Source: a virus (taxonomy: Duplodnaviria; Caudoviricetes). From it: a stretch of DNA of 30,623 bases. Position numbers and translations under genes: made by a program. The notes beneath the pieces are model-generated. The model was not told where the DNA came from, did no database searches, and saw only the letters and a list, made by a program, of their open reading frames with translations. The stretch spans positions 1-30,623 of the IMG/VR virus record IMGVR_UViG_3300036830_000218, one strand, 5' to 3'. This document shows, in pieces, positions 1,567 through 30,438 of this stretch (its first letter is position 1; each line of letters starts with the position of its first letter).

Positions 1567-2289
1567 ATGCCAAGAGGTCGAGGACAGAAGCCAATGCCCA
1601 TCAGTGCGGGCACCATGTTCGGCACGCTGGAGATTGTCAGCGAGATAGAGCGGCAAGGTCACAACCGGCGATTCAACTGCCGATGCATAGGCTGTGGCAC
1701 GACCGGGATGAAGTGGCTATCGAACCTGCTCCAGGGCAAGTTGACATGCACGGTGTGCACGCCATGGAGCGAGATCACCAAGACGGCGCGCGAGAGTGTG
1801 CTCGCCACCCGGAGGGCACGCTCGCAGGAATCCGACGACGGCCGCATCTGCCTGACGTGCAACGAATGGAAGCCGTGGAGCAAATTCAGCAACGACCTGC
1901 GCCGCGAGCGGGGCAAGGCGTCGAACTGCATCGAGTGCGCTCACTGGCGCACCGTCAAGGCCGCCTACGGAATAACCCGTGCCGAGTGGGAGTGGCTGTA
2001 CAGCCTTACGGAGGGCCGATGCACGCTGTGCGACGAAGACGACCCCGTCAACTTCGCAGTTGACCACGACCACTCATGCTGCGGGAACACGCGCGCTTGC
2101 AAGAAGTGCATCCGGGGGATGCTGTGCAGGAACTGCAACATGATGATCGGCAAGGTCGAGCAGAAGCCGGCCCTCCGGCAGCGCTTCGTGGATTACCTGG
2201 ACGGGACGCGCCCGTTTCAGTCATTCGGCGCAGGTGACGCAGTTGCCATCCTCAAAGACGTGGACGTTCAGGCCGAGCACGTCGCCTAG
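1567..2289 (+). CDS. Endonuclease VII / HNH-type homing endonuclease
   Basis: YGIT...W..L....GRCTLC....AVDHDHSCC....C..CIRGMLCRNCN..IG EndoVII signature; N-terminal 'FGTLEIV...CRC.CG' and CxxC Zn motifs; antisense within the head operon. Confidence 0.9.
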   Translation: MPRGRGQKPMPISAGTMFGTLEIVSEIERQGHNRRFNCRCIGCGTTGMKWLSNLLQGKLTCTVCTPWSEITKTARESVLATRRARSQESDDGRICLTCNEWKPWSKFSNDLRRERGKASNCIECAHWRTVKAAYGITRAEWEWLYSLTEGRCTLCDEDDPVNFAVDHDHSCCGNTRACKKCIRGMLCRNCNMMIGKVEQKPALRQRFVDYLDGTRPFQSFGAGDAVAILKDVDVQAEHVA

Positions 2290-2922
2290 TTCCTGAACCT
2301 GCCGCTTCTGCGTCTCGGTCAGTTCTGGACGCGGGCCATCCTCGCGAGTTTCGCCGGCGTCCTCGGTAATGGTGGTCACTCGCGCCTCCTGGACGCTCTC
2401 GGTGATGAGCACTCGCTCCGTGGTCTCCGACCGGGCGCCGCCGCGCGTCCAGGAGAAGCTGTCCACCTGCGCCCCGGTCACCCCGGGCGTCTTGGTGTAA
2501 TCCAGGCCGGACAAAGAGAGCGAATCGCCCGTCTCGCAGTCCTCGCCGTCCGGCCCCTTGACCTTGCGGACGGTGCCCTTCCAGAAGCCCCGGATCGAGA
2601 CGCCCTTCAGGAACGCCGGCTTGCCATCGCTCGTGTCGAGGAGGCTGGCCACAGTGCGCCCGTGCTGAGTGTCGGCCAGGTCGGCCGTGAACCGGGCGTT
2701 CCCGTCCTCGTCCAGCGACATGGACCGGATCCGGCCCACGATCCGGTCGCTCGCATCCTCGGCGCCGTGGTGCGTCAGCATGGACAAATCGGCGCCCGAC
2801 TCGATGGCGGACTGGGCGGCCGACACCATCGCGGCGATGACCGGAGCCGTGTAGAGCCTGCGGTTGGCCGATACGCCGGGGCGGATGGCCACGCCGCTCA
2901 CGGTTGCGATGGTCTTCGCCAC
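2221..2922 (-). CDS. Prohead (capsid maturation) protease
   Basis: PGVSANRRLY, M.THH, IVGRI, GRTVASLL and GVSIRG motifs typical of phage prohead serine proteases; AGGAGG RBS before GTG; position upstream of scaffold. Confidence 0.75.
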   Translation of the reverse strand: MAKTIATVSGVAIRPGVSANRRLYTAPVIAAMVSAAQSAIESGADLSMLTHHGAEDASDRIVGRIRSMSLDEDGNARFTADLADTQHGRTVASLLDTSDGKPAFLKGVSIRGFWKGTVRKVKGPDGEDCETGDSLSLSGLDYTKTPGVTGAQVDSFSWTRGGARSETTERVLITESVQEARVTTITEDAGETREDGPRPELTETQKRQVQELGDVLGLNVHVFEDGNCVTCAE

Positions 2923-4697: not shown

Positions 4698-4825
4698 CAG
4701 CTGATGATCTTCGGAACGAACGGCTTCGCCTCGGCGGCCGTCAGCGACCCGTCACCCGGCATCCCCGGAGCGGGGTTAGTGCCGGGGATCTGGTATGGCT
4801 GCTCCTGCACGGGAGGCTGGCTCAT
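4697..4825 (-). CDS. 42-aa microprotein ending in a copy of the capsid N-terminal motif
   Basis: MSQPPVQEQPYQIPGTNPAPGMPGDGSLTAAEAKPFVPKIIS. ATGA overlap with portal stop, TGATG overlap with MuF start, GAGGAGG upstream. Confidence 0.75.
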   Translation of the reverse strand: MSQPPVQEQPYQIPGTNPAPGMPGDGSLTAAEAKPFVPKIIS

Positions 4826-6333
4826 GCCGCGTCCTCCTCGATGGTGCGCCACCGGGCGAGCGCCTCGCGGAACCGGGCGTGGTAGGCGGCGCGGAACGCC
4901 TCGGCCGGATCGCTGGGCTCGTCGTCCTGGTCTCCGCCGGCCTGCCCGTCACCCGTAGGCGGCTGGCCGGGAACTGCGAGCACGGGAGGCGGCGGCTGCT
5001 CCGCCTTGGTGACCTGCGCCGCCGAGATCGCTGACAGGTCCCGGTACAGGACCATCTCCTGGCGGTTGACGATGAACGCGTCATCGCCGCCCTCCACCGG
5101 AGGCTCGTCGATGTCGGACGCGTACCGGTTGCGGGTCCAGGACCCGTTGCGGAGCCGGATGTCGCGGATCTGCTCGACGGTGAGGGAGTCCCGGTAGTCA
5201 ACCTCGCCGAACTTGGAGTGCCAGTCCTGCACCCCGAAACCCTGCACGGCGATGTGGAAGTTCAGCTTCTCCAGCACGATCGCGCCGAGCGGGTCGCAGG
5301 TGTTGATATGGAACATCCGGTGCTGCGCATCGCCCGTGCCGCCGCCGAGGTTCCCGGACTCGATGATGCCGGCCTCGGCGGGCGGGACCCCGTAGCCGGC
5401 GACGATCTCGTCGCGGCTGTCCTTCTTCGCCGCGAGGGCGTCGGCGAGCTTCCCGGACTGGAGCTCGGTCAGGGTGCCGCCGCCGCGGGTCATCCACGGG
5501 TTCCCGATGTTCCTCGACCCGATGTTCTGCACGGTGGCCTGGTTGCGCCACTTCTCCGCGTCAGCGGGCGAGACGCTCACGGGCAGGTCGGCGTGCACCG
5601 TCGGGGGGAGGCCCTTGCGGAGCATCTCTTTCGCCGTGCCGTGCGCGAACAGCCACGCCGCGATCGGGCCGAGCATCGCCTGCGTCGGCGAGATGCCGAA
5701 CACGCCGGGGCGGGCGCTGTCGAGGCTGATGTGGATGATCTCGCGGGGCTCGAACTCGGCGCGCTGCCCGAAGTCCGTCACCTGCACGTACTTGGAGATG
5801 ACGCCGTGCTCGTCGGCGTCCGGGTACGTCGTGGCGACGTCCTGGTTGTACAGGGCAACCGGGGTCGGCCCCGACCAGCACACCTCGAGCATGGCATCGC
5901 CGAACACCAGCAGGTCGGCAATGACGTTCCGGAGCAGTTGCCGGATGTCCTGCGTGGGGTTGCAGAACGCGTAGAACCGTTCCAGGGCGACAACCGCGGG
6001 CGGCTTGTCCGGGGCTTCCTGGTCGCCCTCGCCGTCGTCGGAGTCCCAGTCGCTGACGATGCCGCCCGCGGTGATCGTGCGGGCGATGGCCTGCACGCTC
6101 GTCCACGCCCACGGGCACGTCAGGTAGGCGTCATTCAAGTCCGACATCATCGACCGGCGGTCAGAGCCGGTCGATGCGCCTATGGCCTGGGTGTTCTCGT
6201 TGATGCCGCCCTGCGGGACGCCGGGGATGTAACCGGTGCGCGGGGGAAGCTGGTTGAAGCCCGGGCCGGCATCCGACGCGGCAGGCCGGCGGCGGAACGC
6301 GGGCGGGACGAGGCTGGAGAGGGGCACGCGCAA
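4822..6333 (-). CDS. Portal protein
   Basis: 503 aa; DLLVFGDAMLEV, EIIHI, GISP, RDEIVAGYGVPP..G and T.N motifs of HK97-like portals; GGGAGG RBS; follows TerL. Confidence 0.9.
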   Translation of the reverse strand: MRVPLSSLVPPAFRRRPAASDAGPGFNQLPPRTGYIPGVPQGGINENTQAIGASTGSDRRSMMSDLNDAYLTCPWAWTSVQAIARTITAGGIVSDWDSDDGEGDQEAPDKPPAVVALERFYAFCNPTQDIRQLLRNVIADLLVFGDAMLEVCWSGPTPVALYNQDVATTYPDADEHGVISKYVQVTDFGQRAEFEPREIIHISLDSARPGVFGISPTQAMLGPIAAWLFAHGTAKEMLRKGLPPTVHADLPVSVSPADAEKWRNQATVQNIGSRNIGNPWMTRGGGTLTELQSGKLADALAAKKDSRDEIVAGYGVPPAEAGIIESGNLGGGTGDAQHRMFHINTCDPLGAIVLEKLNFHIAVQGFGVQDWHSKFGEVDYRDSLTVEQIRDIRLRNGSWTRNRYASDIDEPPVEGGDDAFIVNRQEMVLYRDLSAISAAQVTKAEQPPPPVLAVPGQPPTGDGQAGGDQDDEPSDPAEAFRAAYHARFREALARWRTIEEDAA

Positions 6334-6507: not shown

Positions 6508-8076
6508 CTAGGCCCAGGGTGAGCGCTGCACGGTCGCGCGGGGCTCGTCGTCGGTGGCGCCGTCCAGGTAGAACGGTGCGCCGTCGTCCGGCGGCCGCAC
6601 CGCGAACTGGCCGAGCGGCTGGAGCTTCTCCGCGACGGACTGGCCCGGGACCTCGCCGAGGATGGGGAAGTCCGGGCCGGTGCCGAGGTTGATCAGGAGG
6701 TAGCGAGCGCAGTCAGGAAGGTGATCTTCGCTCGTCGTGTCGGCGTCCTCGGGATTGCCCTTGGCCGCATGGGGGAGATCGGCCAGCGTGCGGTAGAAGT
6801 TCTCGCACGTGCTGAAGATGTGCATTCCGGGGCAGGTGCTCCAGCCGAGCGCGCGGTGATGCGGGCAGGCTGGCCGCTCGGCAAGGTACGAGCGGATCCG
6901 CTGCCAGCCCGTAACGCGTGATCCCGGCCCCTTGCCGGCCTTGGTGAGGTAGACGCCGTTCTCGGCATAGACATCCGCCATGACCTTGGCGTCGCCAACG
7001 ACATTCCACATGGCGTCGTCGGCGAACCGGGAAGTGATGCGCTCGTCATCGGCCTCGGCGGCGAGGATGCGCCGGGCCTGGTCGGCCTCGCCGACCCCCG
7101 CGGAGTAAAGCTCGCGGTAGAACCACGCCCTGCCATCGGGGTCGACCGCGGCCCAGAGGACCCCCCAGGGCGCCCCGTAGCCCCAGTCGATGCCGTTGTA
7201 GCGCAGCCACGACTCGGGGAGCGCAATCGGCGCGATGACGTGCCGCTCCTGGGAGAGTTCCGGGAAGACCTGACCCGCGAAGACGTCCCAGTTGCCGTCA
7301 AGGAAGGCCGCACGCATCTTCGGCGGCAGCGCCTGGAGGTCCGCTGCGTACTCCGGGTTGACGTGCGGATTATCGCTCAGGCGGCTGGGGATAAATCGGA
7401 CCGTCCGGCCGCGCGAGTCGATCGCTACCTTCTGGCCATAGTTGGTCTTGGTGATGAAGGCTTCTTTTACGTCGCCATGAGAAGCGCCGCCGGGGTTCGC
7501 TGATGAGCGGATGCCCAGAACCGGGATGTCCGCGCGACCCGACCGGAGGCGGGATTCCAGGAAGGAGATGACCTCCGCCGGCGTCAAGGTTCGTTCATCA
7601 AATACCAGAAGTTGGTATTGTCCGCCTTGTCGCCTTGTGGCGTCCTGCAACGTTTCCGCGTACCGGAACATGAGCAGCGAGTCATTGGGAAAACGCAATT
7701 CGAAGGAACTGGAATTCCAGACTGCACCAAGCGACTGCGCAAAACCCATCTGCGCGAGCTCGGCGATCAGGGATTCCTTCAGTTCAGGGTACGTGCGCCG
7801 GAAGGCCCCGACGCGGATACCGGGGTAGCGGACGCATGCCCGGATCGCCTCCGCTGTAAGGGCGCGCGACTTCCCCCCGCCCGCGCTGCCGCCGAAAAGT
7901 ACCGAGAACTCAGTAGCTGCGTGGAATTCTGCCTGCTTGGGCGTCGGCACGTAACCGAGCAGCCCGAAGACGTCCACGGCCGCCATGCGCTCACGCTCGC
8001 GGCGGTCGGCCTCTCCGCGGAGCTGCCGCAGTTCCAGGAGCCGAGATGCCCGGACCTCGGCCAGGGACGAAGGCAT
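6508..8076 (-). CDS. terL: Terminase large subunit
   Basis: PTPKQ, Walker A GGSAGGGKS, Walker B LLVFDE, ANPGG, DNPH, nuclease GIDWG and EDHLPDCARY. Confidence 0.95.
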   Translation of the reverse strand: MPSSLAEVRASRLLELRQLRGEADRRERERMAAVDVFGLLGYVPTPKQAEFHAATEFSVLFGGSAGGGKSRALTAEAIRACVRYPGIRVGAFRRTYPELKESLIAELAQMGFAQSLGAVWNSSSFELRFPNDSLLMFRYAETLQDATRRQGGQYQLLVFDERTLTPAEVISFLESRLRSGRADIPVLGIRSSANPGGASHGDVKEAFITKTNYGQKVAIDSRGRTVRFIPSRLSDNPHVNPEYAADLQALPPKMRAAFLDGNWDVFAGQVFPELSQERHVIAPIALPESWLRYNGIDWGYGAPWGVLWAAVDPDGRAWFYRELYSAGVGEADQARRILAAEADDERITSRFADDAMWNVVGDAKVMADVYAENGVYLTKAGKGPGSRVTGWQRIRSYLAERPACPHHRALGWSTCPGMHIFSTCENFYRTLADLPHAAKGNPEDADTTSEDHLPDCARYLLINLGTGPDFPILGEVPGQSVAEKLQPLGQFAVRPPDDGAPFYLDGATDDEPRATVQRSPWA

Positions 8077-8094: not shown

Positions 8095-9204
8095 TCAGGC
8101 AGCGAACAAGGCGGCCTGCACCCACACGGACGGGGCGGATTCGCCCGCGCACGTCGCACCAGGCTGAACGATAAGCCAGGATGCTGCAACGTCTAGAACC
8201 AAGGCGACGCAGGAGATGTCGAAATACTCGCGGCCCCTGATGGGCTTCTCGCCCGCAAGTTCCAAGGCCGCCATCACCGCGCGCTCGGCATCGGGGGCTA
8301 CGGTTCCCGGAAGCCCCGTCGCCAAGCGGACTACGTCGCGGTACCCCTGTGCGGCATGGGCGCGCAACCTAGGCCGGGGATCGCCTGACGTGATACCGAA
8401 CTTCACGCCGGCGGGCCCCGTGACAACGTAGAAGGCATCCCACGTCATGCCCCTGCACGCCCGGCAGACGCCGCCACCAGCAAGAACGCTGGCAGGCCAG
8501 GGGCTGCACGAGTGCCCGGCGGCGCACCTCACGGCGTGCGGGCGGCCAGTACCGGCCCACGCCTCGTAGAGCGGCACTGCGCCGAGCTCCGCGAGCCGGG
8601 CACGGAACCTTTTCTCGACCGTCGCCGAGTCGCGTCCGATACACACCCGGCAGATTCCGTCACCGTCTCGGACGTCGTTCGGCCGGGGGTAAGACTCATG
8701 CCCGTTCACACACCGGACATGATGGCCGGCACCGGAGCCCCGGTACTGCTCATACAAGGGAGTGGCCCCGAGTTCGGCCAGCCGAGCCAGGAACGCCGCC
8801 TCGGCCGTATCCGGATCCCTGCCTACGCAGACTCGGCAAGGACCGCGGCCCATTTTGAGGCTGTCCGGGGAGGGCCGGCATTCATGGCCTGCCGAGCACC
8901 GAACGCGATGGCCAGAGGAGCTCTTGATGTACGGCTCCAGCAGCGTGGCGCCGAACTCGGCGAGCCGTGCGAGAAACTCGGCTTCAGCCACGGCGGGGTC
9001 CTTGCCCGCGCATGTTATGCACAGGCCCTGGCCTTGCTGAAGGCTATTCGGGCGCGGTCGGCATGCGTGACCCGAACGGCACGTTACGCGATGTTTGACC
9101 AGAGCGCCCAGCCATACGGGCTCAAGTAATTCCGCGCCCAATTCGGCCAGTCGCGTCCTGAAGGCACCTTCGGCTGCCAGCGACGCGGGAGAACGGATGG
9201 CCAT
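8095..9204 (-). CDS. Zn-finger-repeat protein with C-terminal GIY-YIG (T5orf172-like) nuclease; probable homing endonuclease
   Basis: Four ~62-aa repeats F..RLAE.GA..L.......H.V.C..GH...P.P.....G.G.C..C, then FYVV....VKFGIT...RL..H...E...REYF; start ATG 9204; sits between terS and terL. Confidence 0.75.
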   Translation of the reverse strand: MAIRSPASLAAEGAFRTRLAELGAELLEPVWLGALVKHRVTCRSGHACRPRPNSLQQGQGLCITCAGKDPAVAEAEFLARLAEFGATLLEPYIKSSSGHRVRCSAGHECRPSPDSLKMGRGPCRVCVGRDPDTAEAAFLARLAELGATPLYEQYRGSGAGHHVRCVNGHESYPRPNDVRDGDGICRVCIGRDSATVEKRFRARLAELGAVPLYEAWAGTGRPHAVRCAAGHSCSPWPASVLAGGGVCRACRGMTWDAFYVVTGPAGVKFGITSGDPRPRLRAHAAQGYRDVVRLATGLPGTVAPDAERAVMAALELAGEKPIRGREYFDISCVALVLDVAASWLIVQPGATCAGESAPSVWVQAALFAA

Positions 9205-9215
9205 GCCCAATGATC

Positions 9216-9653
9216 TCAGGGGGTACTGACATTCTCCCTGGTCAGCGGAAGCCCGAGCTGGGCATTCAGCTTGGCGATCTCGCGGTCGATCGCGTCGAGG
9301 CTGATGTACTCGTGGCGCTCCGGCGCGTCCAGCCCGAGGAGCCGGGCCTTGCGCTCGGCCCACCCGCGGATCGAGTTCCACGCCTCCACCGCCGTGCGGG
9401 GACGGTCGTGGTCGCGGGCCAGGCCCAGCAGGTCGGAGATCGCGTCGTCGATGAGCATGAGCTCCTCGGCGCGGTGCTCCTCGACCTGGGCGGCCGGGAT
9501 CTCCGCGAGGGCCTGGGCGTAAAGCTGCTGGGCGCGCTGGCGGGAGATGCCCATGCGCTTGCCGATCTCGGCCATGGACAGGCGCTGGCGTCGCAGGCCG
9601 ACGACCTGGGCGCGGCGCTCGGCCTGCTCGGCGGTCCGCTGGTTGGTGGGGAT
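9216..9653 (-). CDS. terS: Terminase small subunit (HTH), probable non-canonical ATC start
   Basis: RRAQVVGLRRQRLSMAEIGKRMGIS HTH and ERKARLLGLDAP motif; AGGAGGT SD 6 nt before in-frame ATC at 9653. The ORF-track ATG 9575 lacks an SD and truncates the HTH. Confidence 0.75.
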   Translation of the reverse strand: MPTNQRTAEQAERRAQVVGLRRQRLSMAEIGKRMGISRQRAQQLYAQALAEIPAAQVEEHRAEELMLIDDAISDLLGLARDHDRPRTAVEAWNSIRGWAERKARLLGLDAPERHEYISLDAIDREIAKLNAQLGLPLTRENVSTP

Positions 9654-9867
9654 AGCTAGACCTCCTGACGCAAGTGGCGAGCCCGGCGTGGGCGCAATGT
9701 CGGATCTGGCGAGTACTGACCTGCGAAAACTCGGTAGATTGATCTTGGTCCGGGCCAGGTGGCAGCCCCGTCCAGCGTGCCCTCTGCTTGGAGCCCGGCC
9801 CTGGGGCCGCTCCTGAAACGGGGTGATGACTGCCCTTGGCCGGCACGCTCGACCTGGCCCGGCCGCC

Positions 9868-12250: not shown

Positions 12251-12958
12251 TCAGACGGCTGAAATGGCCGCGTGCCACCCGCTCGCCAGCAGCGCCGGGT
12301 CGGCAGCCTGGACAGCCAGGACGGCGAGGGCGAGCACCAGGGCCGGGAACACGAACATGGTCTCTGGTCGCGTTCCTGTCGACCACGCAAAAGGCTCGGG
12401 CAGAAAGTGCACCCGGTACTGGCAGGGCCAGAGCCAGTTGACGCCCGAATCGGTGCAGCTGTCGAGCGCGGCATGCACGAGGCAGCCCAGGAGCACGGCC
12501 AGCGGGATCAGGGCGAGCCCCCAGCCGAACCAGATGACCGCCGCGGACACGAGGATGCCCGTGACGTCCGCGATGTGGCTGCGCGTCACGTGCAGGGCTT
12601 CCAGGCCGGCGGAGACGCTCAGGGTGATGAGCAGCGCCAGTCCCGCCATGCCGGCGTAGTCCCCGCGGAAGTGGCAGGCCAGGAGCGCGAGCCCGGTGAA
12701 CGCGGCAACTCCGATGAGGCTGTGCGTCGCATGCCTGTGGCCGCCGCTGACCTTGCGCACCAGGTGGGACACCGCGCCGGAGATCAGGCCGAGCGAGCGC
12801 GCGCCGGTCGAACCGCAGCTGTCCAGGTCGAGCAGGAGCGCCATTCCCGTGGTCAGGCCCGCGAGCTCGGCGTCGTGCTTCAGCGTCATGTGGGTGAAGA
12901 CCCCGACGCCCAGGCCGAGGACCGTTCCTGAAAGCGCATGGACGCGGCCGGTGCACAT
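12251..12958 (-). CDS. YdjM-family membrane metal-dependent hydrolase
   Basis: M.GRVH...G, LDLD, HR..THSL, G.LVH...D..T.SGV..LWP motifs; multiple TM segments; AAGGAGA RBS. Confidence 0.85.
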   Translation of the reverse strand: MCTGRVHALSGTVLGLGVGVFTHMTLKHDAELAGLTTGMALLLDLDSCGSTGARSLGLISGAVSHLVRKVSGGHRHATHSLIGVAAFTGLALLACHFRGDYAGMAGLALLITLSVSAGLEALHVTRSHIADVTGILVSAAVIWFGWGLALIPLAVLLGCLVHAALDSCTDSGVNWLWPCQYRVHFLPEPFAWSTGTRPETMFVFPALVLALAVLAVQAADPALLASGWHAAISAV

Positions 12959-13039
12959 GGTCGTTCTCCTTGGTCGGTTCGGGTGGAGGCCCGGCGGCGG
13001 CTCGGTCTGGATCCGCACCGCCGCCGGGGGTTCATGGGG

Positions 13040-13312
13040 TCAATCTCGGCTGAGCCAGCCAGCCATCTCGCGGCTGACAGACAGCAGGTTGCGGGGCTCT
13101 GCGGTAGCGCGTGCGGCCAGGACGACGGCCAGCCTGCGGCGATTGAACGTCACGTCGTCGTCGGCCTGCTGGATCCACTCGGCGACCTGCTCGGCCGGGC
13201 GGAACAGGGATGCGAGGTCAATAGGCGACTCGGCTGCCGGGCGCAGCATCGACGTGATCGCGGACATGGCCAGCGCCCGCGAACTGATCGGCCCCTGGAT
13301 GTCATGCAGCAT
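13040..13312 (-). CDS. Hypothetical helical protein
   Basis: Overlaps the end of the TraB-like gene and fills the gap. Confidence 0.45.
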   Translation of the reverse strand: MLHDIQGPISSRALAMSAITSMLRPAAESPIDLASLFRPAEQVAEWIQQADDDVTFNRRRLAVVLAARATAEPRNLLSVSREMAGWLSRD

Positions 13313-15167
13313 CTCGGAGTACCTGCCCTTCTCCTGTGTACTCCCAGGACGGGAGCCATTTCGGCGAGCCTGGCACGGCGTGCGGGACGCGGGCCGCGTT
13401 GGCGATGTCCTTCGCGAACGCCGCGTCGAGCGGCAGCAGGCCGCCCATCTCCGCTGCGTCGACCTCGGCCTCTTCCTCGCCGACCCACACGCTGCGGAAC
13501 GTCGCAGCTGACCGGTGGTCGACGGAGTTGATGTAGCCCAGTCCGCCGATGTCCGATGGCAGGTGGAACGGCTGCCCCTGGATCCCCAGGAACGTGGCGT
13601 TGAGGTTCTCCGCGCTGCGGAAGGCCACGGCCTGCATCGCGGCGAGGGACTGGCGCAGCGCCCGGGACTTCATCTCGGCCAGGCCGGCGAGCTGGTTGCC
13701 GACGACCAGCGCCATGCCGGCTTTGCGGCCCAGCTTGCCGATCTGGGACAGGATGTACTCGGCCTCGCCTGCGTAGTCGCGGTGCTGGAGCAGCAGGTGC
13801 ATCTCGTCGAGGATGACCAGCATCAGCGGCAGTTCCCAGGTGGGCCGGAACCGGCCGACGCCGCGGATCTCGCGGCCCTTGGAGTCGATCCAGGGCGTGT
13901 TCCCCAGCCGGGCCGAGCGCTTCAGCAGCGCCGCGTACAGGGACCGCAGGGCCGCCATCGACGAGTCGGTGCCCAGGGCGGTGAGGTCTACGCGGCCGGT
14001 CCAGCCGGGCAGCGACTGGGCCTGCGGGTCGAGGATCCACCGCCGGATCAGCCGGCGGCCCTCCGCGTCCACGGCCACCCCGGCCTCGGCCAGCAGCAGC
14101 GACAGGAACCCGGACTTTCCCGAGCCGGTGGAACCGGTGGCGATGCAGTGCGCGGCGCCGGAGCCGGGCTTCCAGAACCGGTACCGGGCAGGCTCGCTGT
14201 CGCCGAACCAGCCGGCGGTGATGATGCCCTCGTCCAGGTCGAGCGTGGAGCCGGCCCACATCTGGGCCTCGGTGAACTGCCGCGAGTTGGTGATGACCGA
14301 CACGTCGGCGCGGGACCGGGAACGTGACCTGCCGTGCTCGACGGCGACCTGCTCCCACGGCACGTCGTAGAGGGAGCAGATCCGGTCGTGGACCTGCGAC
14401 ACGCTGCCGGTGGTCTGCTTGCCGCGGACGAGCTGGACGCCGAGGCGGAACCCGTTGGTGATCGGCGAGAACGCCACGACCTCGGGCTCATGGCCGGTCT
14501 CGGCCTTATGGGTGCGGGCGGCCATCTCCAGCAGCGGCCCCTCGGCGCTGAACTTGCAGTCGCCGCCCTCGGGGCACCAGGCGTAGCCGCCGGGGTCGGC
14601 GAAGGCGAGCGGGCCGTCTTTCAGGCAGAACGCCTCGCGGAACGCGGCGACCTGAGGGGGGATGTGCGGACCGCGGGCCGGCTCGACCGAGGCCTGGGGT
14701 TCGTGCTCGCGGAACCGGCGGCGCTGCGCCCGCAGCCACGGGGCGGCGGCAATAGCGCCGCCGCCAAGGAGAAGCCCCTGGGCAAGCGGGCTGCTCACGC
14801 CGGCCGCTGCGCCGGCGAGAGCCGTAGCGGTCCCGGCACCCCAGTAGCCGGCCGCCTGCCACTGGACGCTGCGGTGGCGCTTGCGGTTCCGCCACGCCAG
14901 CCGGGCGCCGATGACGGCCGAGGACGTCCCGATGACATACGCGGCCCACGGGAACGGGATCAGGTGGCCGGCGAGCGCTGCGCTGTCGGCTGCGGCGATC
15001 CACGCGGGCGCGGCGAGGTAGGAGTGGTGGTGCACCATGGACGCAGGCCGGAACTCGGCAAGGCGTGCAGCCTTCTTCTCGGCCAGCGCCTGCGCCGCGC
15101 GGATATCCGCCAGCGCAGTCTCCATGCGCTTCAGCTCAGCCGGGCCGAGCGCGGTCTTGACTGCCAT
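13302..15167 (-). CDS. FtsK/SpoIIIE-family conjugative DNA translocase (TraB-like)
   Basis: N-terminal TM helices, Walker A GSTGSGKS, ILDPQ, Walker B LVILDEMH, GRKAGM, NQ and GLGY motifs; AAGGAGG RBS; Spd-like neighbours. Confidence 0.85.
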   Translation of the reverse strand: MAVKTALGPAELKRMETALADIRAAQALAEKKAARLAEFRPASMVHHHSYLAAPAWIAAADSAALAGHLIPFPWAAYVIGTSSAVIGARLAWRNRKRHRSVQWQAAGYWGAGTATALAGAAAGVSSPLAQGLLLGGGAIAAAPWLRAQRRRFREHEPQASVEPARGPHIPPQVAAFREAFCLKDGPLAFADPGGYAWCPEGGDCKFSAEGPLLEMAARTHKAETGHEPEVVAFSPITNGFRLGVQLVRGKQTTGSVSQVHDRICSLYDVPWEQVAVEHGRSRSRSRADVSVITNSRQFTEAQMWAGSTLDLDEGIITAGWFGDSEPARYRFWKPGSGAAHCIATGSTGSGKSGFLSLLLAEAGVAVDAEGRRLIRRWILDPQAQSLPGWTGRVDLTALGTDSSMAALRSLYAALLKRSARLGNTPWIDSKGREIRGVGRFRPTWELPLMLVILDEMHLLLQHRDYAGEAEYILSQIGKLGRKAGMALVVGNQLAGLAEMKSRALRQSLAAMQAVAFRSAENLNATFLGIQGQPFHLPSDIGGLGYINSVDHRSAATFRSVWVGEEEAEVDAAEMGGLLPLDAAFAKDIANAARVPHAVPGSPKWLPSWEYTGEGQVLRDAA

Positions 15168-15216
15168 CGAACTTCCTCCTTCCGTGTCGTCTCGCGGTTC
15201 CCGGCCTCCGGGGAAA

Positions 15217-15240
15217 GCCGCCAGCCGTGAAGCTGGCGGC
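15217..15240 (-). terminator. Hairpin upstream of the TraB-like gene (terminator/attenuator)
   Basis: GCCGCCAGC-cgtgaa-GCTGGCGGC, followed by TTT on the minus strand. Confidence 0.45.
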
Positions 15241-15263
15241 CACCCTGGCTGTCGGGGCAGCCC

Positions 15264-16340
15264 TTACGCCTCGACGTACCAGGGCGTATCGGCGACGTGT
15301 TCCTGGCCCCCGGCGGCGGCGTGAGCGTCGGCGATGTCGGTGTGGACGCCGCCCAGCAGCGCGCCGGACTGGTCGGCCAGGCCACTGAGCTCGGCCGCCT
15401 GCTCCTGCATCTGCTCGAAGTGAGCGATGACGTTGGGGTCGGCGTTCTTCGACAGCAGGTTGCCGATGATCCCGTCGATCTGCGCGGTCAGGCTGCCGGC
15501 GAGGCCCTTGAGGGCGCTGGCCGCGCCCTTGGTGCTGGCCAGGTCGGTGCCGGCATCGCCGTCGACCTCGGTGCCGGTGTTGAACCCGTCGGCGGTCGGG
15601 CGGATGCCAATCACGGTGTCTTCCATGTGGGTGTCTCCATTCGGGTTGGCGGTGTCGTCTTCGGAAAGGGCTGTCTCGTCGGGCGGCTCGGGGTCCCCGT
15701 CGTGGAATGCCGTGTCCCATACCTCGCCGGGACGTGGCTCCACGACGGAGGGGGCGTCCGGGTTCTCCCAGTCGGCCGGAAGTGGCTCGTCCCAACTGTC
15801 GGCTGGCGCGGCCGTCTTCTCGGCCTGCGCGCAGTCAATGTGCGCCAGTCCGTCGTTCGGCCGGGCATCCAGGTCTGTGCCGCAGAAGATGCACTGCGGG
15901 TCGCGGCGGCCACGGGCGATCCCCGCAGCCTCCCCGGCCCCGACCGCGCCCCCGCCGGCCGGGAGGCCGGCCTCGGGGTCGGCGAACACGTTCTCGGCGT
16001 CCCCGAATGCCTCGTCGTGCGCCTGGCGGTAGGCGTGGTAGCGAGCCCGGGCGCCCTCGCGGACGGTCTCGGCGCGGGTACGGGCTGCCTTGTGGGCCAG
16101 CCACCCGGCATGCAGCCCGGTGCGAGCGACGGGGAAGCCGTGGAAGACCTCCCCGGCGATGTAGCCCAGGGCGTGATGGCGGGCGATGCGGCCATGCTCC
16201 GCCTCGGGGATGACGCCGCCCGGATACTGGCGGGCGACCTCGGCGACGCGCGCCGCCCGGGACCGCCGGTAGTCGGCCTTCACGTGGTCGTACACATCCC
16301 TGAACGCGCAGCCGACCAGGAAGATGATCAGGATTTCCAT
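15264..16340 (-). CDS. Transfer-region protein (TraA-position), N-terminal membrane anchor, helical C-terminal domain
   Basis: Hydrophobic N-terminus, CIFC...HIDC motif, acidic linker, helical C-terminus; directly upstream of the TraB-like gene; internal GGAGA-ATG at 15626. Confidence 0.55.
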   Translation of the reverse strand: MEILIIFLVGCAFRDVYDHVKADYRRSRAARVAEVARQYPGGVIPEAEHGRIARHHALGYIAGEVFHGFPVARTGLHAGWLAHKAARTRAETVREGARARYHAYRQAHDEAFGDAENVFADPEAGLPAGGGAVGAGEAAGIARGRRDPQCIFCGTDLDARPNDGLAHIDCAQAEKTAAPADSWDEPLPADWENPDAPSVVEPRPGEVWDTAFHDGDPEPPDETALSEDDTANPNGDTHMEDTVIGIRPTADGFNTGTEVDGDAGTDLASTKGAASALKGLAGSLTAQIDGIIGNLLSKNADPNVIAHFEQMQEQAAELSGLADQSGALLGGVHTDIADAHAAAGGQEHVADTPWYVEA

Positions 16341-16341
16341 G

Positions 16342-16734
16342 TCAGCCGCCGTTCACGAACTGCCCGACGGTGGCGCCACCGCGCTGCTCCAGGTGGGTGA
16401 CGCCGCTGGCGACGGACCCGCCGAGGCTGCCGCCGAGGGTCACGATCATCACCCCGAACGCGAAGGCGACGAACGGGGTCCGCTTCGGGTGCGTCTTGTT
16501 CTTCTTGTGAACCTCGTGGTAGAAGGCGATGGCCAGCGCCACGAGCAGCGGGAACCCGATCGAGACCCCCAGCAGGGACCAGTGCAGGACGCCCGTCAGG
16601 GACAGGATGAGGGCGGAAAGCCCGACCCCGGCGAAAAACAGGCACCAGCAGGCGAACCGGAATGCCTTCCGGTAGAAGAACCCCAGCAGGAGGCCCACGA
16701 TTAGCAGGGCCGCGCTGAATGACGTGATGGACAT
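16342..16734 (-). CDS. Multi-TM membrane protein (Spd-like)
   Basis: About 4 hydrophobic segments; GGAGGT RBS; transfer-region context. Confidence 0.65.
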   Translation of the reverse strand: MSITSFSAALLIVGLLLGFFYRKAFRFACWCLFFAGVGLSALILSLTGVLHWSLLGVSIGFPLLVALAIAFYHEVHKKNKTHPKRTPFVAFAFGVMIVTLGGSLGGSVASGVTHLEQRGGATVGQFVNGG

Positions 16735-16757
16735 TGCTTACCTCCGTCTCCTGACGG

Positions 16758-17267
16758 TCAGGCCACGGCCGCGATGATCACGGCCCCGGCGATGAGAAGG
16801 ACGAGCCCGATCCGGACGGGCCGGGCGAACAGCCATGCGAGGCCGTAGAGCAGCGCGACGACGGGGATGCCGACGCAGTACCCGTAGGCCCGGCCGGCGG
16901 CGCGGAGCCACTCGGCCTCGTGGTGGTCGGGCACCCATGCGGATGCCCGGTAGTAGGCGGCGATGTGGGCGATGGACGGCGGCTCGTCGGTGAGGACGGT
17001 GCCGGGCTGGGACATGGACTTGCGGGCCGACGCCGTGACCATCCCGGCCCAGTGGCGGAGGGTCACGGCGACGACGTCCCCGGCCGTGACCGTCAGGCCC
17101 GGCATCTGCGGGGTGTCAGCGGAAGCGTCAGCCTTGGCGTCAACGCTGGCGTCAGCCGGGGCGTCAGCGGGAGCGTCAGCCCCAGCGTCAGTCACCGGGG
17201 CGTCAGCAGCGTCGGCGTCCGGGCCGTCATCGGCCGGCGGGACAAGGCGCAGCGCGGGCTCGCTCAC
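16758..17267 (-). CDS. Membrane protein with ADAP repeats (Spd-like)
   Basis: Two C-terminal TM segments; GTGA coupling, GGGAGG RBS. Confidence 0.6.
   Translation of the reverse strand: MSEPALRLVPPADDGPDADAADAPVTDAGADAPADAPADASVDAKADASADTPQMPGLTVTAGDVVAVTLRHWAGMVTASARKSMSQPGTVLTDEPPSIAHIAAYYRASAWVPDHHEAEWLRAAGRAYGYCVGIPVVALLYGLAWLFARPVRIGLVLLIAGAVIIAAVA
17113..17207. repeat. 12-bp-period GCGTCAG array
   Basis: GCGTCAG at 17125, 17149, 17161, 17173, 17185 and 17200; one-mismatch copies at 17113 and 17137. Confidence 0.8.
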
Positions 17268-17626
17268 CTGGAGCCTCCCTTCGCGCCCGGGATCTGCCGG
17301 GCGATGTCGTGGAGCTGGGCACCGAGATCACGGCGCCATTTCTCGGCCCGGGCCGCGTCGAGGCGCTCCAGGTTCTTGAGCCGGGCGAGCACGTGATCCA
17401 GGCCCGACTTGAAGGCTTGCGCCCCGGTCTGTGCTGATTCCGAGGCGGCGGTGTGCCTGGCCGCGCTCCTCGCCGCCCGGGCCTGCTGTCGGCCGGGACG
17501 GGTAGGCTTCTCGCGCGCGCCCGCACTAGCAGGCGCCCCCGCTAGTGCTTGCGCAGGCGTTGGGGTCTCAGGTGAGGCTGGCTGCGAGGTGAACAGCGGC
17601 TCGCGTCCGCCGGTTACGGGTGTCAT
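17264..17626 (-). CDS. Hypothetical protein
   Basis: MTPVTGGREPLF...GAKGGSR; ATGA and GTGA overlaps with both neighbours. Confidence 0.6.
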   Translation of the reverse strand: MTPVTGGREPLFTSQPASPETPTPAQALAGAPASAGAREKPTRPGRQQARAARSAARHTAASESAQTGAQAFKSGLDHVLARLKNLERLDAARAEKWRRDLGAQLHDIARQIPGAKGGSR

Positions 17627-18477
17627 CGGGTCGCCTCCTCGGTCTCCTTGCGCCACTTGATCGCGTTCTGCCGGCCCAGGCTCGACGTGGACGGGTCCAG
17701 GCCGGCCGCGCGCATGAGGTCCGCGCCCGACGGCTGCCGGCCCTCTGTGGCCTCCCGGTCCCAGAAGGCGCGCATCACGTCCGTGGCACTCAGGCTCCCG
17801 TCCGCCGGCGCGATGGCCCCCGAAGGCGCCGCGCCGTTCGCGAGAGCAAGCCGCGGGGTGCCGGAGGTGACGCTTCCCGGCGGCAGGGTGACGATCTGGG
17901 CGTTGCGCCGGGCCAGTTCCGCCTGACGCTCCTCGCGCCGCCGGCGGCCAGCCTCGGCCTGACGCTCCTCTTCCTCCTGACGCTCGCGCTGGGCGGCCAG
18001 GGCGGCCTGACGCTGACGCTCGGCGGCCTCGGCAGCCTGACGCCTCGCCTCCGCGGCGAGGTGACGGCGGCCGTCCTCCGCGGCCCGGCGCTCCATGAGC
18101 GAGATGGCCAGAAGCAGGAACGCGCCGGGCACCAGGGCCACGATGACGCCCCACGTGTCGACCTGCGCGCCGGCGACGTTGCCCGCCAGGGTCAGCAGGA
18201 TCCCGCCGCACATGACCAGCGTCGGCCACGACGCCCAGCCCTTCCGCTTGCGCCCGATGCGGGCGTCACGCTGCCGCTCCCGGGCCGCCATGTAGACGCC
18301 GAGGTCCACGCTGACCGCGATGGCCGGCGCGAGGATGCCCCGCTGGCCGTGGCTCGCCGCCAGGTGCACCCAGTGGTCGAAGCTCCCGCCGAACGCGATG
18401 AGGGCCAGGACCAGCGGGACCCCGTTGTCGGCCAGGAAGGTCCAGAACCGCCCCGACCCCTCGTGCTCGCCCATCAC
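17623..18477 (-). CDS. DUF2637 (Spd-family) membrane protein with coiled coil and C-terminal HTH-like region
   Basis: AF.GSF.H...LA..HG....A..IAVSVD, L.GNV and VPG..LL...L.E motifs; E/R/Q coiled coil; PSGADL...AG C-terminus. Confidence 0.75.
   Translation of the reverse strand: MMGEHEGSGRFWTFLADNGVPLVLALIAFGGSFDHWVHLAASHGQRGILAPAIAVSVDLGVYMAARERQRDARIGRKRKGWASWPTLVMCGGILLTLAGNVAGAQVDTWGVIVALVPGAFLLLAISLMERRAAEDGRRHLAAEARRQAAEAAERQRQAALAAQRERQEEEERQAEAGRRRREERQAELARRNAQIVTLPPGSVTSGTPRLALANGAAPSGAIAPADGSLSATDVMRAFWDREATEGRQPSGADLMRAAGLDPSTSSLGRQNAIKWRKETEEATR
17923..18043. repeat. CTGACGC cluster (reverse complement of the 17.1-kb array unit)
   Basis: CTGACGC at 17923, 17959, 17977, 18007, 18013 and 18037. 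Confidence 0.7.
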
Positions 18478-21303: not shown

Positions 21304-21732
21304 ATGTCAGACGTGCCGAAGTACAGGCAGATTGCCGCGAGCCTGCGCGACGACATCACGGCCGGGCACCTCAGGCCGGGCGACCAGATGCCCACCAAGG
21401 CGCGCCTGATGGCCGACACGGGCGTCGCCCTGGGGACGGTCGACCGGGCGCTCGCGGAGCTGCGCCAGGAAGGGCTCATCCGCTCCGAGCAGGGCCACGG
21501 CATATTCGTGGCCCGCGTGCCAGACCCCCCCGCTGACCTTCCCGGCCAGCTTGACGCGCTGCGCGGCGGCCTCGCCGACCTGCGCGGAGAGGTTGCCGGG
21601 CCGATGGTGGACCGGGTGGCCGCGCTGGAGGCAAACCTGATGGACCTGTACGCGAAGCTGGGCTTCGAGTATCCCCACGACGGTGCCGCTGAGGCTCAGG
21701 CCCCGAAGCGGCGAAGGGCGGCCGGGGCGTGA
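21304..21732 (+). CDS. GntR-family wHTH repressor (Kor-like) with coiled-coil C-terminus
   Basis: PKYRQIAASLRDDI..G.LRPGDQMPT...L....GVA.GTV.RAL..L..EGLI....G.G.FV. Confidence 0.9.
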   Translation: MSDVPKYRQIAASLRDDITAGHLRPGDQMPTKARLMADTGVALGTVDRALAELRQEGLIRSEQGHGIFVARVPDPPADLPGQLDALRGGLADLRGEVAGPMVDRVAALEANLMDLYAKLGFEYPHDGAAEAQAPKRRRAAGA

Positions 21733-22592
21733 GCGCCGGGGACGGCGAGGTCGTCAGCCTCGCCGCGCGAGCCGGATACCGCCCGAACCTCGGAGCCCTG
21801 GCACGCGGCCACGTCGCCACCGCACGGGCCAGGACCGGGCTGTCCCTGGCCGCGTTCGCCGCCCGGCTCGGGCCGCTGCTCGGCTGGGACACCGACGGCC
21901 CGACCGTGAGGCGGTGGGAGACCACCACCACGCCCCCTACTGACGTGACGTTCGCCGCGATGCTGCTGGCGCAGGACGCGCCCGGAGACGTGCTGACCGT
22001 GCCGCTGAGCGCCGACGCCGCGCCGAGGGCGGCGGTCATGTCCGCCATCGGGTCCGCGCTGGAGCTGGCCGGGGGCGTGCGGCCCTACGGCGACCGGGCG
22101 ATGGTCACCCGGGCCGAGTGGAACGACATCATCACCGGGTCGGCTGACCGGCTGTGGCTGTACGGCATGGCCGAGTTCGGGTACGCGAGCGACCCGGAGG
22201 TCCCCGGCATCCTCGCCGAGGCCGCGGCGGACGGGGCTGACGTGCGGGTCCTGCTGCTGGCCCCTGCCTACGCGGGCATCCCGCAGATCGAGGCCGACGA
22301 GGGCAGCCCGCCGGGCACGCTGGCCGCGCGGATCACCGCGTCGCTGGCCCGGTTCCGGGAGATGCAGCGGGCGGCGCCGGGAATCAGCATCCGGACCTAC
22401 GACGCGCACCCCACGCTCAGCGTGGTCCGCGGCGACGGGGAGATGCTCGTCACCCCGTACCTGCGGTTCTTCTCCGGGTCCGCGAGCCCGACGTGGCGCC
22501 TGGACGCGACAACGGGGGGGCGCATGTTCGCCAGGTACGAGAGGCACTTCATCGACGCGTGGGACCGGGCAGCGGAAGGGGCGGCGGCGTGA
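21729..22592 (+). CDS. XRE-like HTH fused to DUF5919 (PLD-like) domain
   Basis: ARARTGLSLAAFAARL....TVRRWE HTH; GADVRVLLL.P, IRTYDAHP, D.EMLVTPYL and F..YERHF...W motifs. Confidence 0.75.
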   Translation: MSAGDGEVVSLAARAGYRPNLGALARGHVATARARTGLSLAAFAARLGPLLGWDTDGPTVRRWETTTTPPTDVTFAAMLLAQDAPGDVLTVPLSADAAPRAAVMSAIGSALELAGGVRPYGDRAMVTRAEWNDIITGSADRLWLYGMAEFGYASDPEVPGILAEAAADGADVRVLLLAPAYAGIPQIEADEGSPPGTLAARITASLARFREMQRAAPGISIRTYDAHPTLSVVRGDGEMLVTPYLRFFSGSASPTWRLDATTGGRMFARYERHFIDAWDRAAEGAAA

Positions 22593-23167
22593 GCTCAGCA
22601 CCGGGGGGCGGCATGGAAGATGCCGAGCTTGCGCGCCGGGAGGTGCTGCTCGAGTCGCCGAAGCGGTTCGTCCGCGACGAGCTCGTCATGCCCGACGGCG
22701 AGCGGGTCGACTGGTTCTACGTGGACACCCCGCCGTCTGCCCTGGTGATTCCGGTGACGGCGGCGGGGAACCTGGTGATGGTCCGGCAGTACCGGTACAA
22801 CCTCCGGGAGCACGTGACGGAGTTCCCGGCGGGGATCATCGCTGACGGGGAGAAGCCGGCCGACGCCGCGGCGCGGGAGCTGGCCGAGGAGACGGGCTAC
22901 GCGCTGGAGCCGGGCGCGGTGCTGGAGCCGCTGGGGGCGTGGTACTCGCTGCCGTCGGAGACGACGAAGCGGACCCACGTGTTCCTGGCCCGGCCGGTGC
23001 GGCGGGTGGGCACCCCGGTCCTCGACACCGAGATCGAGCGGTACTTCGACATGTCCGTCGAGGAGATCCCGGTGGGCGAGGCGCAGGCGGCGCTGGGCAC
23101 GCGGATCACGGGGTTCGAGACGCTGGCCGCGCTGCTGATGGCGCGCGAGGCGCTGCACCGGCCCTAG
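22589..23167 (+). CDS. Nudix hydrolase
   Basis: Nudix box PAGIIADGEKPADAAARELAEETGY; VRQYRY; GTGA overlap at 22589 (alternative ATG 22613). Confidence 0.92.
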   Translation: MSSAPGGGMEDAELARREVLLESPKRFVRDELVMPDGERVDWFYVDTPPSALVIPVTAAGNLVMVRQYRYNLREHVTEFPAGIIADGEKPADAAARELAEETGYALEPGAVLEPLGAWYSLPSETTKRTHVFLARPVRRVGTPVLDTEIERYFDMSVEEIPVGEAQAALGTRITGFETLAALLMAREALHRP

Positions 23168-28909: not shown

Positions 28910-29037
28910 GCGACCACCCCGGCTACTGGTGCCATGACTGCCAGGTCGAGGTCATCTACTGGTCCGAGTTCCTGGAGCACGCGAACGCTGGCCATGCGAT
29001 CCAGGTCGGCGCACCGGAGGGGGAGAACGCACGATGA
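28906..29037 (+). CDS. 43-aa C2H2-like Zn-finger peptide
   Basis: YWCHDC........F.EH...GH; GGAGG RBS; ATGA overlaps. Confidence 0.6.
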   Translation: MSDHPGYWCHDCQVEVIYWSEFLEHANAGHAIQVGAPEGENAR

Positions 29038-29432
29038 GCACTCCGCTGGTCGACAGCATCATCGACACGACCCCTGCCGCTGACGTCCTGGCCATGGTGT
29101 CCGCCGCCATGCTGGCCCTGGCCGACGCCGCGACGCCTGACCGCTGGGTGGAGATGTGCCTGGGCTCGGAGGGCTGCCAGGTCATCCGTGACTGCGGCCC
29201 CCGCGAGCGGGACCGCCGCGTCGTAGCCCGGCTCACCGGCAAGCGGGAGTGGAAGCACGACCACGCCGACGCCGCCTACCTGGCCGGGATGCAGCCGGCC
29301 GTGGCCAGGGCAACCGCCCGCCTGCTCGCGGAACTGGGCGAGCACGCCGCTCACGGCAGCCAGGGCGCCCTCGTGGCGGATGGCATGGACATCGCCCGGG
29401 CCTTCATGGACGCGACGGGGTGGAGGCCGTGA
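29034..29432 (+). CDS. Hypothetical phage protein
   Basis: AATPDRW...ADAAYLAGMQP motif common in phage accessory proteins; GGGGAG RBS. Confidence 0.6.
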   Translation: MSTPLVDSIIDTTPAADVLAMVSAAMLALADAATPDRWVEMCLGSEGCQVIRDCGPRERDRRVVARLTGKREWKHDHADAAYLAGMQPAVARATARLLAELGEHAAHGSQGALVADGMDIARAFMDATGWRP

Positions 29433-29572
29433 GCGACGACCCGAAGCTCTGCGCCCGCTGCGATGACGAGCCTGTCGGCCCCGGTCAGATCCTCTGCCTG
29501 CGCTGCGCCGCGGACCTTGAGTCTCGCGGGGTTGAGTTCTGGTACGAGCAGGCCCTGGCCGACGAGGACTGA
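29429..29572 (+). CDS. 47-aa CxxC-CxxC Zn-finger peptide
   Basis: LCARC........LCLRC; GGAGG RBS; GTGA overlap. Confidence 0.6.
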   Translation: MSDDPKLCARCDDEPVGPGQILCLRCAADLESRGVEFWYEQALADED

Positions 29573-29750
29573 CCCCCCGAATACCGGTCTGTGTATTTTG
29601 CAGCCTGCATGCCACTCTTATCTGCATGGCCAGACTGCTCGCCTTCCTGCACATACGCCGGCGCCCGAAGCCCAGGCACGCCGGCGGGTACGCCCGCTAC
29701 ACCTGACGCCGGTCCCTGATTCCGTCCCACGTCAGCGGTACCATCAGGGC

Positions 29751-29936
29751 ATGGCCGCAGCCCTGCACGACACCTCCCTGGCGCCCCTCACGTCGTCGCT
29801 GCCGGACCTGGGACGGGTTCCCCTGGGGCGCATGCAGGAGCAGGGCGCGGAGGGGCTGAGCGAGACGCTGAACAGGGTGCTCCCGGCGCCCGAGGTGTCC
29901 CAAGTGCCCGTCGCTGCCTTTAATAGCAGCATATGA
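29751..29936 (+). CDS. FxSxx-COOH family RiPP precursor-like peptide (FxsA-like), 61 aa
   Basis: MAAALHDTSLAPLTSSLPDLGRVPLGRMQEQGAEGLSETLNRVLPAPEVSQVPVAAFNSSI*: LPDL..VPL..., L...L.RVL leader and terminal AAFNSSI; TACCAT -10 located 6 nt before ATG. Confidence 0.85.
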   Translation: MAAALHDTSLAPLTSSLPDLGRVPLGRMQEQGAEGLSETLNRVLPAPEVSQVPVAAFNSSI

Positions 29937-29956
29937 GTAGCTTGGCGGCGCAGGCG

Positions 29957-30238
29957 TTACCTGGGCTGGTAGCGCGGCTCCGGATCGCGCCACGACTCGT
30001 CTTCCGGCTCCCAGGGCTGCGTATAGCCGCTGAGCGGCGAGCCCGAGTGGTGATGCCTGCCGCTGCACGCCTGCGGCCCGTAGCCGATTCGCCAGCGGTC
30101 GCCCTGGTCGGTGTCCTCATTGTGGCAGCACTCGACCAGCGAGCAGCCGCACCACAGGCCGAGGTAGCGGTCGATGCCCAGGCGGTCGCGGGACAGCCGG
30201 TTGTCGCGGGTGTCAGGCCAGGAGCGGTGGCCGCTCAT
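29957..30238 (-). CDS. Cys/His-rich hypothetical protein
   Basis: ATGA coupling; CGC...CCH...C..HHH. Confidence 0.5.
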   Translation of the reverse strand: MSGHRSWPDTRDNRLSRDRLGIDRYLGLWCGCSLVECCHNEDTDQGDRWRIGYGPQACSGRHHHSGSPLSGYTQPWEPEDESWRDPEPRYQPR

Positions 30239-30438
30239 ATCCGCTCCACGCCCATCACCGCGACAGCCAGCTTCCCGCCCACTGCCGCGGTCTCGGCCAT
30301 GCACTTGAGGCACCGGACCACCCTGCATCCCCGGTCGGCGCAGTGCCAGCGGACGGTGCGGGACTGGCAGGCATGGCACCAGGGCGGGGAGCCCCAGCCG
30401 GACAGGTGGCCCGCGTAGAGGCCGCGAGGCTCGCTCAT
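30235..30438 (-). CDS. Zn-finger hypothetical protein
   Basis: CHAC...HC...C...CLKC; ATGA coupling. Confidence 0.55.
   Translation of the reverse strand: MSEPRGLYAGHLSGWGSPPWCHACQSRTVRWHCADRGCRVVRCLKCMAETAAVGGKLAVAVMGVERI

Follow-up and report, generated by a model that had tools for sequence, protein, structure and literature searches.

Introduction

The closest described counterpart of the gene studied here is the bacterial Fxs system, for which we take as reference the families TIGR04268 (FxSxx-COOH/FxsA precursors), NF040585 (SjiA), TIGR04269 (FxsB radical SAM/SPASM), TIGR04267 (HExxH hydroxylase), NF040588/TIGR04276 (FxsC) and NF040586 (FxsT). In the available portions of the published accounts, FxsB is described as forming cyclophanes (PMC10114670), and the HExxH domain fused to the radical SAM protein, which a preliminary description of the present DNA had listed as a protease, is nowadays placed among the alpha-ketoglutarate-dependent peptide beta-hydroxylases (TIGR04267.2; PMC12636437). 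Likewise, the available part of Kaur et al. (2020; PMC7159879) ties FxSxx-type peptides to AP-ATPase-TPR conflict systems and predicts that the peptide serves, as a toxin or a signal, to amplify the system. Though the chemistry of FxSxx-COOH peptides has been characterised, our literature search returned no biological role for them and no report of an Fxs locus restricting phage. It also returned no paper on virus-borne FxsA, in a coverage that left subscription journals mostly aside; supplements, such as the source tables of Kaur et al., might list copies. Here we describe a virus-borne member of this peptide family, follow it through other virus records and weigh what it may do to the Fxs loci of bacterial hosts.

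Results

The window, that is, the whole stretch of DNA analysed, is a linear virus record (G000) of 30,623 nt, taken in full and 34% complete according to CheckV. Its head-tail phage genes include, on the minus strand, a terminase large subunit (6508..8076), a portal protein (4822..6333) and a head maturation protease (2221..2922), and the virus is an actinobacterial phage. The packaging and head module is broken up by two nuclease-like genes: an endonuclease VII gene lies on the opposite strand (1567-2289, plus), and a 583-aa ORF matching endonuclease PHROGs is located directly upstream of the terminase (8095-9846, minus). Beside the head genes, at 13302-18477 (minus) and 21304-23167 (plus), are an FtsK/SpoIIIE-like ORF and DUF2637, GntR, HTH-DUF5919 and NUDIX genes, which we take to be the set known from actinomycete conjugative elements; the phage possibly carries a plasmid-type transfer module. 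The FtsK/SpoIIIE-like ORF has a weak PHROG match (E of 4e-6) and no match among solved structures.

The gene of interest is an fxsA-like ORF on the plus strand, only 687 nt from the end of the record, which runs from an ATG at 29751 to a TGA ending at 29936 (186 bp) and encodes a 61-aa FxSxx-COOH precursor. The preliminary description had given the feature as 29739..29936; the end of that span is the end of the ORF, and its start is the first base of a TACCAT hexamer ahead of the ATG. The peptide features that it had read from the translation are all present. Leader motif 1, SLPDLGRVPL (residues 16-25; 29796..29825, plus), falls in conserved alignment columns, and leader motif 2, LSETLNRVL (residues 36-44; 29856..29882, plus), holds positions L36, E38, T39, L40, R42 and L44, invariant across 24 aligned sequences. 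By translation and alignment, the short ORF closes with FNSSI and a stop codon in a C-terminal core, VAAFNSSI-stop (29910..29936, plus), whose Phe57 and Ser59 are the predicted cross-link pair. Membership in the FxSxx-COOH family, for which an HMM search had been proposed as the check, was borne out by a TIGR04268 score of 38.9 bits (E of 7e-10; cut-off 28); the SjiA equivalog NF040585 gave 27.3 bits, under its cut-off of 75, and no Pfam or PHROG model matched. With the tail removed, the leader scored 50.2 bits on the host subtype-I model, compared to a shuffle maximum of 9.6. Furthermore, the G+C content by codon position (0.72/0.51/0.87) is of the coding type for such a G+C level.

The window peptide has 23 homologues at E<=1e-3, the best of them 90% identical. 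Its nearest chromosomal-type relative, at 68% identity, heads the full fxsA-fxsB-HExxH-fxsC-fxsT locus of L005, and its last eight residues are those of the host peptides in L005, L006, L008 and L031. The nearest named homologue, labelled Streptosporangiaceae (76% over 84% of the query), is identical in sequence to the peptide of L004, a 2-kb metagenome contig whose next genes match two PHROGs, one of which is also matched in the window.

In agreement with the earlier placement of the gene at the end of an accessory-gene string, overlapping accessory genes lie upstream and are followed by 178 nt before the ORF; the previous ORF has its stop at 29570-29572, and the gap proper spans 29573..29738. 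One upstream accessory gene (29034..29432, plus) encodes a family-less product whose homologue in complete phage G001 is likewise encoded upstream of fxsA (L001 8671-9129; 44% over 78 aa, E of 2e-16). Downstream, the ORF list shows a convergent ORF (29957..30379, minus) that ends 21 nt past the fxsA stop and drew no match in Pfam or PHROG searches. No convincing repeats were found near the gene. Contigs from other soil runs cover both of its junctions: X3 spans the promoter-ORF junction (29665-29820) with zero differences, and the ORF end with its downstream DNA is covered by X3 (29791-30042) and X4 (29915-30110). An assembly chimera is therefore ruled out. A relative's contig shows seven listed differences within the ORF; the four that alter a residue all fall within residues 2-14, ahead of the conserved motifs, and the two at codons 26 and 42 leave the residue unchanged.

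A leaderless promoter of its own had also been ascribed to the gene, and this claim fared less evenly. The hexamer TACCAT (29739..29744, plus), the predicted -10, does lie 6 nt before the ATG, which has no Shine-Dalgarno-like word ahead of it, and a TAnnnT word precedes the start by 6-7 nt in 4/29 other viral copies compared to 0.8% before any ATG (p ~9e-5, with viral start codons picked by eye). However, sigma-70 promoter and terminator scans around the gene found nothing. The relative's contig with the seven listed differences, X2, aligns with gaps across the hexamer, and most other viral copies have a Shine-Dalgarno-like word.

No Fxs partner gene had been recognised in the window by eye, and none emerged here: FxsB, FxsC and FxsT are absent from it by HMM and by tblastn. 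Five CxxxCxxC motifs occur in its six frames, among which the FxsB model gives no candidate. A scan for fxsB in the rest of the contig had been proposed, and the window is itself the whole record, with no fxsB adjacent or elsewhere on it; since that record is 34% complete, the term orphan holds for the window and not for the whole phage. The window peptide is thus an FxSxx-COOH family member outside any Fxs cluster found.

The same arrangement recurs in other viruses. IMG/VR was searched once by alignment and four times by pattern, a phage survey that the preliminary description had called for, and this yielded 28 further virus records with an FxsA-like ORF, or 29 with the window, of which about 26 are distinct (three pairs are identical or 98% alike). 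Whole-record searches of these 29 records found fxsB in none, fxsC in none and fxsT in none, and each is likewise missing from all 12 records that are at least 90% complete; as a positive control, genome G008 was matched by the fxsB, fxsC and fxsT models. The stand-alone viral fxsA-like gene is therefore supported as a recurrent phage trait, as opposed to a one-off.

Not every search was equally productive. The alignment search of viral contigs found three copies. One pattern scan had 15 real matches out of 15, another nine real stretches out of 15 (six chance), another four out of 16 (12 low-G+C chance matches), and another gave one new copy, three repeats and one chance match; in all, 19 chance stretches were dropped. 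A single-protein search of viral contigs returned 45 pattern matches, none of which was confirmed. Since the scans required V[SA]AF[NQHK]S, conservation of the Phe and Ser among viral copies is circular, and dominant-negative variants would be invisible to them. Among cultured phages (50,697 records, four queries) there was no real match by short-query tblastn, a weak search; a match in Streptomyces phage Frankenweenie was discarded, being antisense to an annotated gene and devoid of the tail. Plasmids gave only chance matches to FxsA-like queries.

For peptide-level comparisons, L004 was treated as viral on account of its two PHROG matches, in the leader test and the tree but outside the 29 records, and L057, cut by a contig end, was omitted from both. 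All 30 viral peptides besides the window's (29 from records plus L004) match TIGR04268 at E<=0.05, and nine of the 30 pass its cut-off. Complete phage G002 has a tandem pair of divergent FxsA-like genes (L002 9807-10159), with products ending FQSSI and FNSSL. The set's weakest family score belongs to a divergent copy with a clear Shine-Dalgarno sequence in a 45% G+C virus stretch (L081 3857-4027, from G147). The neighbours of viral fxsA vary, with DUF6221, Rv2179c-like exoribonuclease, TROVE, NUDIX and GIY-YIG genes recurring. TROVE (Ro60-like) genes adjoin viral fxsA in otherwise unrelated phages (L050, L061 and L062), as do Rv2179c-like exoribonuclease genes (L050, L058, L059 and L067).

What the viral copies keep is the leader as well as the tail. 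With the tail removed, 29/30 viral leaders outscore 200 shuffles at p<=0.05, which argues that the presumed maturase-recognition part has been kept. Furthermore, of the two subtype models, the one for peptides encoded ahead of FxsB-HExxH, in which the window's relatives are over-represented, gives the better score for 29/30 whole viral peptides. Support is weak in a tree of 87 peptides, which rests on 60 columns with 12/84 branches well supported, but those well-supported branches demand at least three changes between virus and host labels. An AU test rejects a single viral clade (p=0.0009), and with it a single viral origin. Together with a median pairwise identity of 35% among viral peptides and the tandem in G002, this points to repeated capture and retention.

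In hosts, the peptide gene keeps its partners. A survey of hosts for fxs loci, also part of the earlier proposal, found fxsB in 63/121 sampled genomes of the actinobacterial family of G009 and in 331/401 sampled genomes of Streptomycetaceae, the family of G008; the likely hosts commonly have Fxs machinery. The statement that FxsA is normally encoded next to FxsB agrees with the 121 genomes, in which 50 of 56 TIGR04268 matches lie within 10 kb of fxsB, four adjoin fxsT or Fxs remnants and two are false. Compared to linkage in 0/21 on the other side, this gives a Fisher p of 7e-14, a value that ignores relatedness. In the family of G008, each of the best 30 of 111 listed peptide matches lies no more than 1.5 kb from fxsB or fxsC, and 15 further stretches comprise 14 Fxs loci and one false match. 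Of 26 metagenome loci, 19 have an adjoining fxsB and five lie at a contig edge; the remaining two are L004 and a weak unrelated match. Host copies thus sit in Fxs loci and viral copies lack the partners, so that the stand-alone state tracks viruses. No prophage-borne fxsA turned up among the 6 + 15 candidates examined in bacterial genomes; these are a subset of the hits, since the fxsB listing available for comparison with the 149 pattern hits covers 150 of 487 matches.

The host loci themselves combine a peptide, a maturase and TIR-bearing proteins. Locus L005 encodes FxsA, a radical SAM-HExxH protein, an FxsC with Pfam TIR_2 and an FxsT with ParA-like, TIR_2, NB-ARC and TPR domains. A C-x-x-E-W motif, which we take to be the catalytic-Glu helix of TIR NADases, is present in 34/34 FxsC TIRs vs 0/20 FxsT TIRs. 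In PADLOC, neither FxsC nor the peptide is modelled, and FxsB and FxsT draw partial generic matches only. Many host loci hold two peptide-TIR-STAND units; second FxsC-FxsT units are seen in L166 (G530:C13), L164 (G174:C113), L169 and L176. Genome G530 (L166) has two peptides and one fxsB among the matches listed, and it looks as if use of the maturase in trans may be natural in hosts. In L164, a peptide-FxsC-FxsT unit has its nearest fxsB, among the matches listed, 16 kb away. L021 has an aminoglycoside 3-N-acetyltransferase-family gene (12660-13511) between fxsB-HExxH and fxsC, possibly an extra tailoring enzyme. Finally, L074 (G033:C50) and L077 (G033:C56) are decayed Fxs loci in which an intact peptide gene stands beside small fxsB remnants.

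Discussion

Here the genomic pattern is strong, and the counter-defence mechanism that it brings to mind is evenly poised. The interpretation in the preliminary description is partly supported: family membership, the stand-alone state and recurrence in phages hold, whereas production of the peptide, its modification and its action on a host system that would restrict phage are predictions. Our best explanation, which we consider to have an even chance of being right, is that the viral peptide is a counter-defence mimic matured by host FxsB, or an unmodified competitor variant of one. Within the host module, FxsT would be the sensor and FxsC an enzyme with a toxic or signalling role, and the peptide modified by FxsB would be their ligand, given that TPRs commonly bind free C-termini; the FxsC TIR would provide a putative toxic, NAD-cleaving output. 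As a ligand, host FxsA would hold FxsT or FxsC in check in the manner of an antitoxin, its presence signalling that all is well, and it would be lost when infection shuts the host off. The viral copy, expressed from its own predicted leaderless promoter and cross-linked in trans by host FxsB, would stand in for the lost peptide and keep the predicted TIR/NLR-like suicide module FxsC-FxsT from firing. In a near variant with the same outcome, the viral peptide would stay unmodified and, present in excess, would compete for FxsB or for the TPR sensor.

Several observations count for such a mimic: the lack of partners in 29 records, the contrasting linkage of host copies to Fxs loci, the retained leader, the better fit to the FxsB-HExxH subtype, the several origins, the domains of the host locus, the apparent use of a maturase in trans in G530 and the tie to conflict systems drawn by Kaur et al. 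Because the 29 records are partnerless and have more than one origin, we class the gene as a candidate orphan mimic, and since leader and tail were kept and the enzyme dropped, reliance on host FxsB is the simplest reading. A restraining ligand is favoured over an activating one, since a lytic virus would be harmed by faithfully copying a signal that activates the system. Of the 12 near-complete carriers, four are not proviruses and show neither an integrase nor a serine recombinase, which makes a benefit in lytic growth plausible.

The remaining eight carriers (seven with a tyrosine or serine recombinase, one more a provirus) are temperate, which weighs against the mimic and fits a lysogen benefit, in which a prophage would supply additional activating peptide for host FxsB to mature, priming the Fxs TIR/NLR-like system to act on competitors or superinfecting phages. 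We consider this unlikely, though several viral copies have their own predicted promoter, and if the peptide is the amplifying signal predicted in the available part of Kaur et al. (PMC7159879), a copy with an intact leader would be an agonist that turns the system on, again contrary to the mimic. However, the four carriers named above speak against it, as does the setting of the gene among small accessory genes (DUF6221, Rv2179c-like exoribonuclease, TROVE, GIY-YIG), as opposed to a shared lysogeny module; moreover, the host already produces the peptide, so that an extra copy would add little.

The host counts bear on another alternative. An fxsB frequency of 331/401, or even of 63/121, is high for a defence system and makes a core signalling or developmental locus as plausible as a defence island, which again counts against the mimic. 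Fxs could then be a cell-fate or developmental unit of filamentous actinobacteria, through which the phage steers host physiology or its own choice between lysis and lysogeny. The paired peptide-TIR-STAND units of many host loci and the lack of a dedicated PADLOC model suit such a non-immune hijack. Nonetheless we judge it quite improbable: the virus records yielded no recognisable receptor or export signal, and the host locus has a TIR catalytic motif and STAND-TPR architecture, a combination typical of immune or death modules. Lastly, a neutral passenger acquired from a host through recombination and now without function, or part of a cluster on an unseen part of the genome, is very improbable: the 34%-complete record ending 687 nt past the gene, the 68% identity to the chromosomal FxsA of L005 and the four of seven differences in the relative that alter a residue would suit it, but some 26 distinct viruses have kept the frame, the leader and the signals for translation or a promoter intact and never have an adjacent fxsB, which in hosts lies ~20 nt downstream of the peptide gene, and the relative's residue changes are confined to the stretch ahead of the motifs.

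The counter-defence mimic can be carried one step further, to a proposal that we put forward tentatively and regard as possible: Fxs would be an undescribed anti-phage system in which a peptide cyclised by a radical SAM enzyme restrains a TIR-STAND-TPR sensor and a TIR NADase, and actinophages would have repeatedly stolen the precursor as an off-switch matured by the host enzyme. Many unrelated viruses keeping the precursor alone are natural evidence of a role for the peptide in phage-host conflict, and with a gene of 186 bp one can test directly whether the peptide turns a bacterial NLR/TIR module on or off. In the latter case, Fxs would be a RiPP-gated immune system, met by a counter-defence dependent on host post-translational modification.

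Comparison with known systems

Like FxsA precursors, the window peptide exceeds the family cut-off at a length of 61 aa, has both leader motifs and ends in a free C-terminal FxSxx. Unlike host FxsA, its gene is virus-borne among accessory genes and has no partners, and where host FxsA shares an operon with fxsB, the window gene has its own predicted leaderless promoter. The peptide-processing modules of actinobacterial VMAP and stand-alone AP-ATPase conflict systems are similar in that they associate the same peptide type with radical SAM-SPASM and TIR-AP-ATPase-TPR genes; that account, in its available part, covers cellular systems and mentions no viral stand-alone copies (PMC7159879).

Phages also carry orphan restraining components of other kinds, among them pseudo-ToxI, Dmd and solitary CRISPR repeats. 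If the mimic reading holds, a similar case is AdfN, as the available part of its report describes it, which acts against DarTG1 and is likewise the restraining component of a host system carried alone by a virus (Johannesman et al., 2025; PMC11825919). Phage orphan antitoxins, whether enzymes, RNAs or unmodified proteins, are backed by experiment; the window product, unlike them, is a RiPP precursor that would need a host enzyme, and its defence and counter-defence roles are predicted. RiPPs also enter phage conflict in the anti-phage lanthipeptide clusters of Actinobacteria, which, as far as the available text describes them, are whole, host-encoded and of another RiPP class (bioRxiv 10.1101/2024.06.26.600839), whereas the window has the precursor only, and on the virus side.
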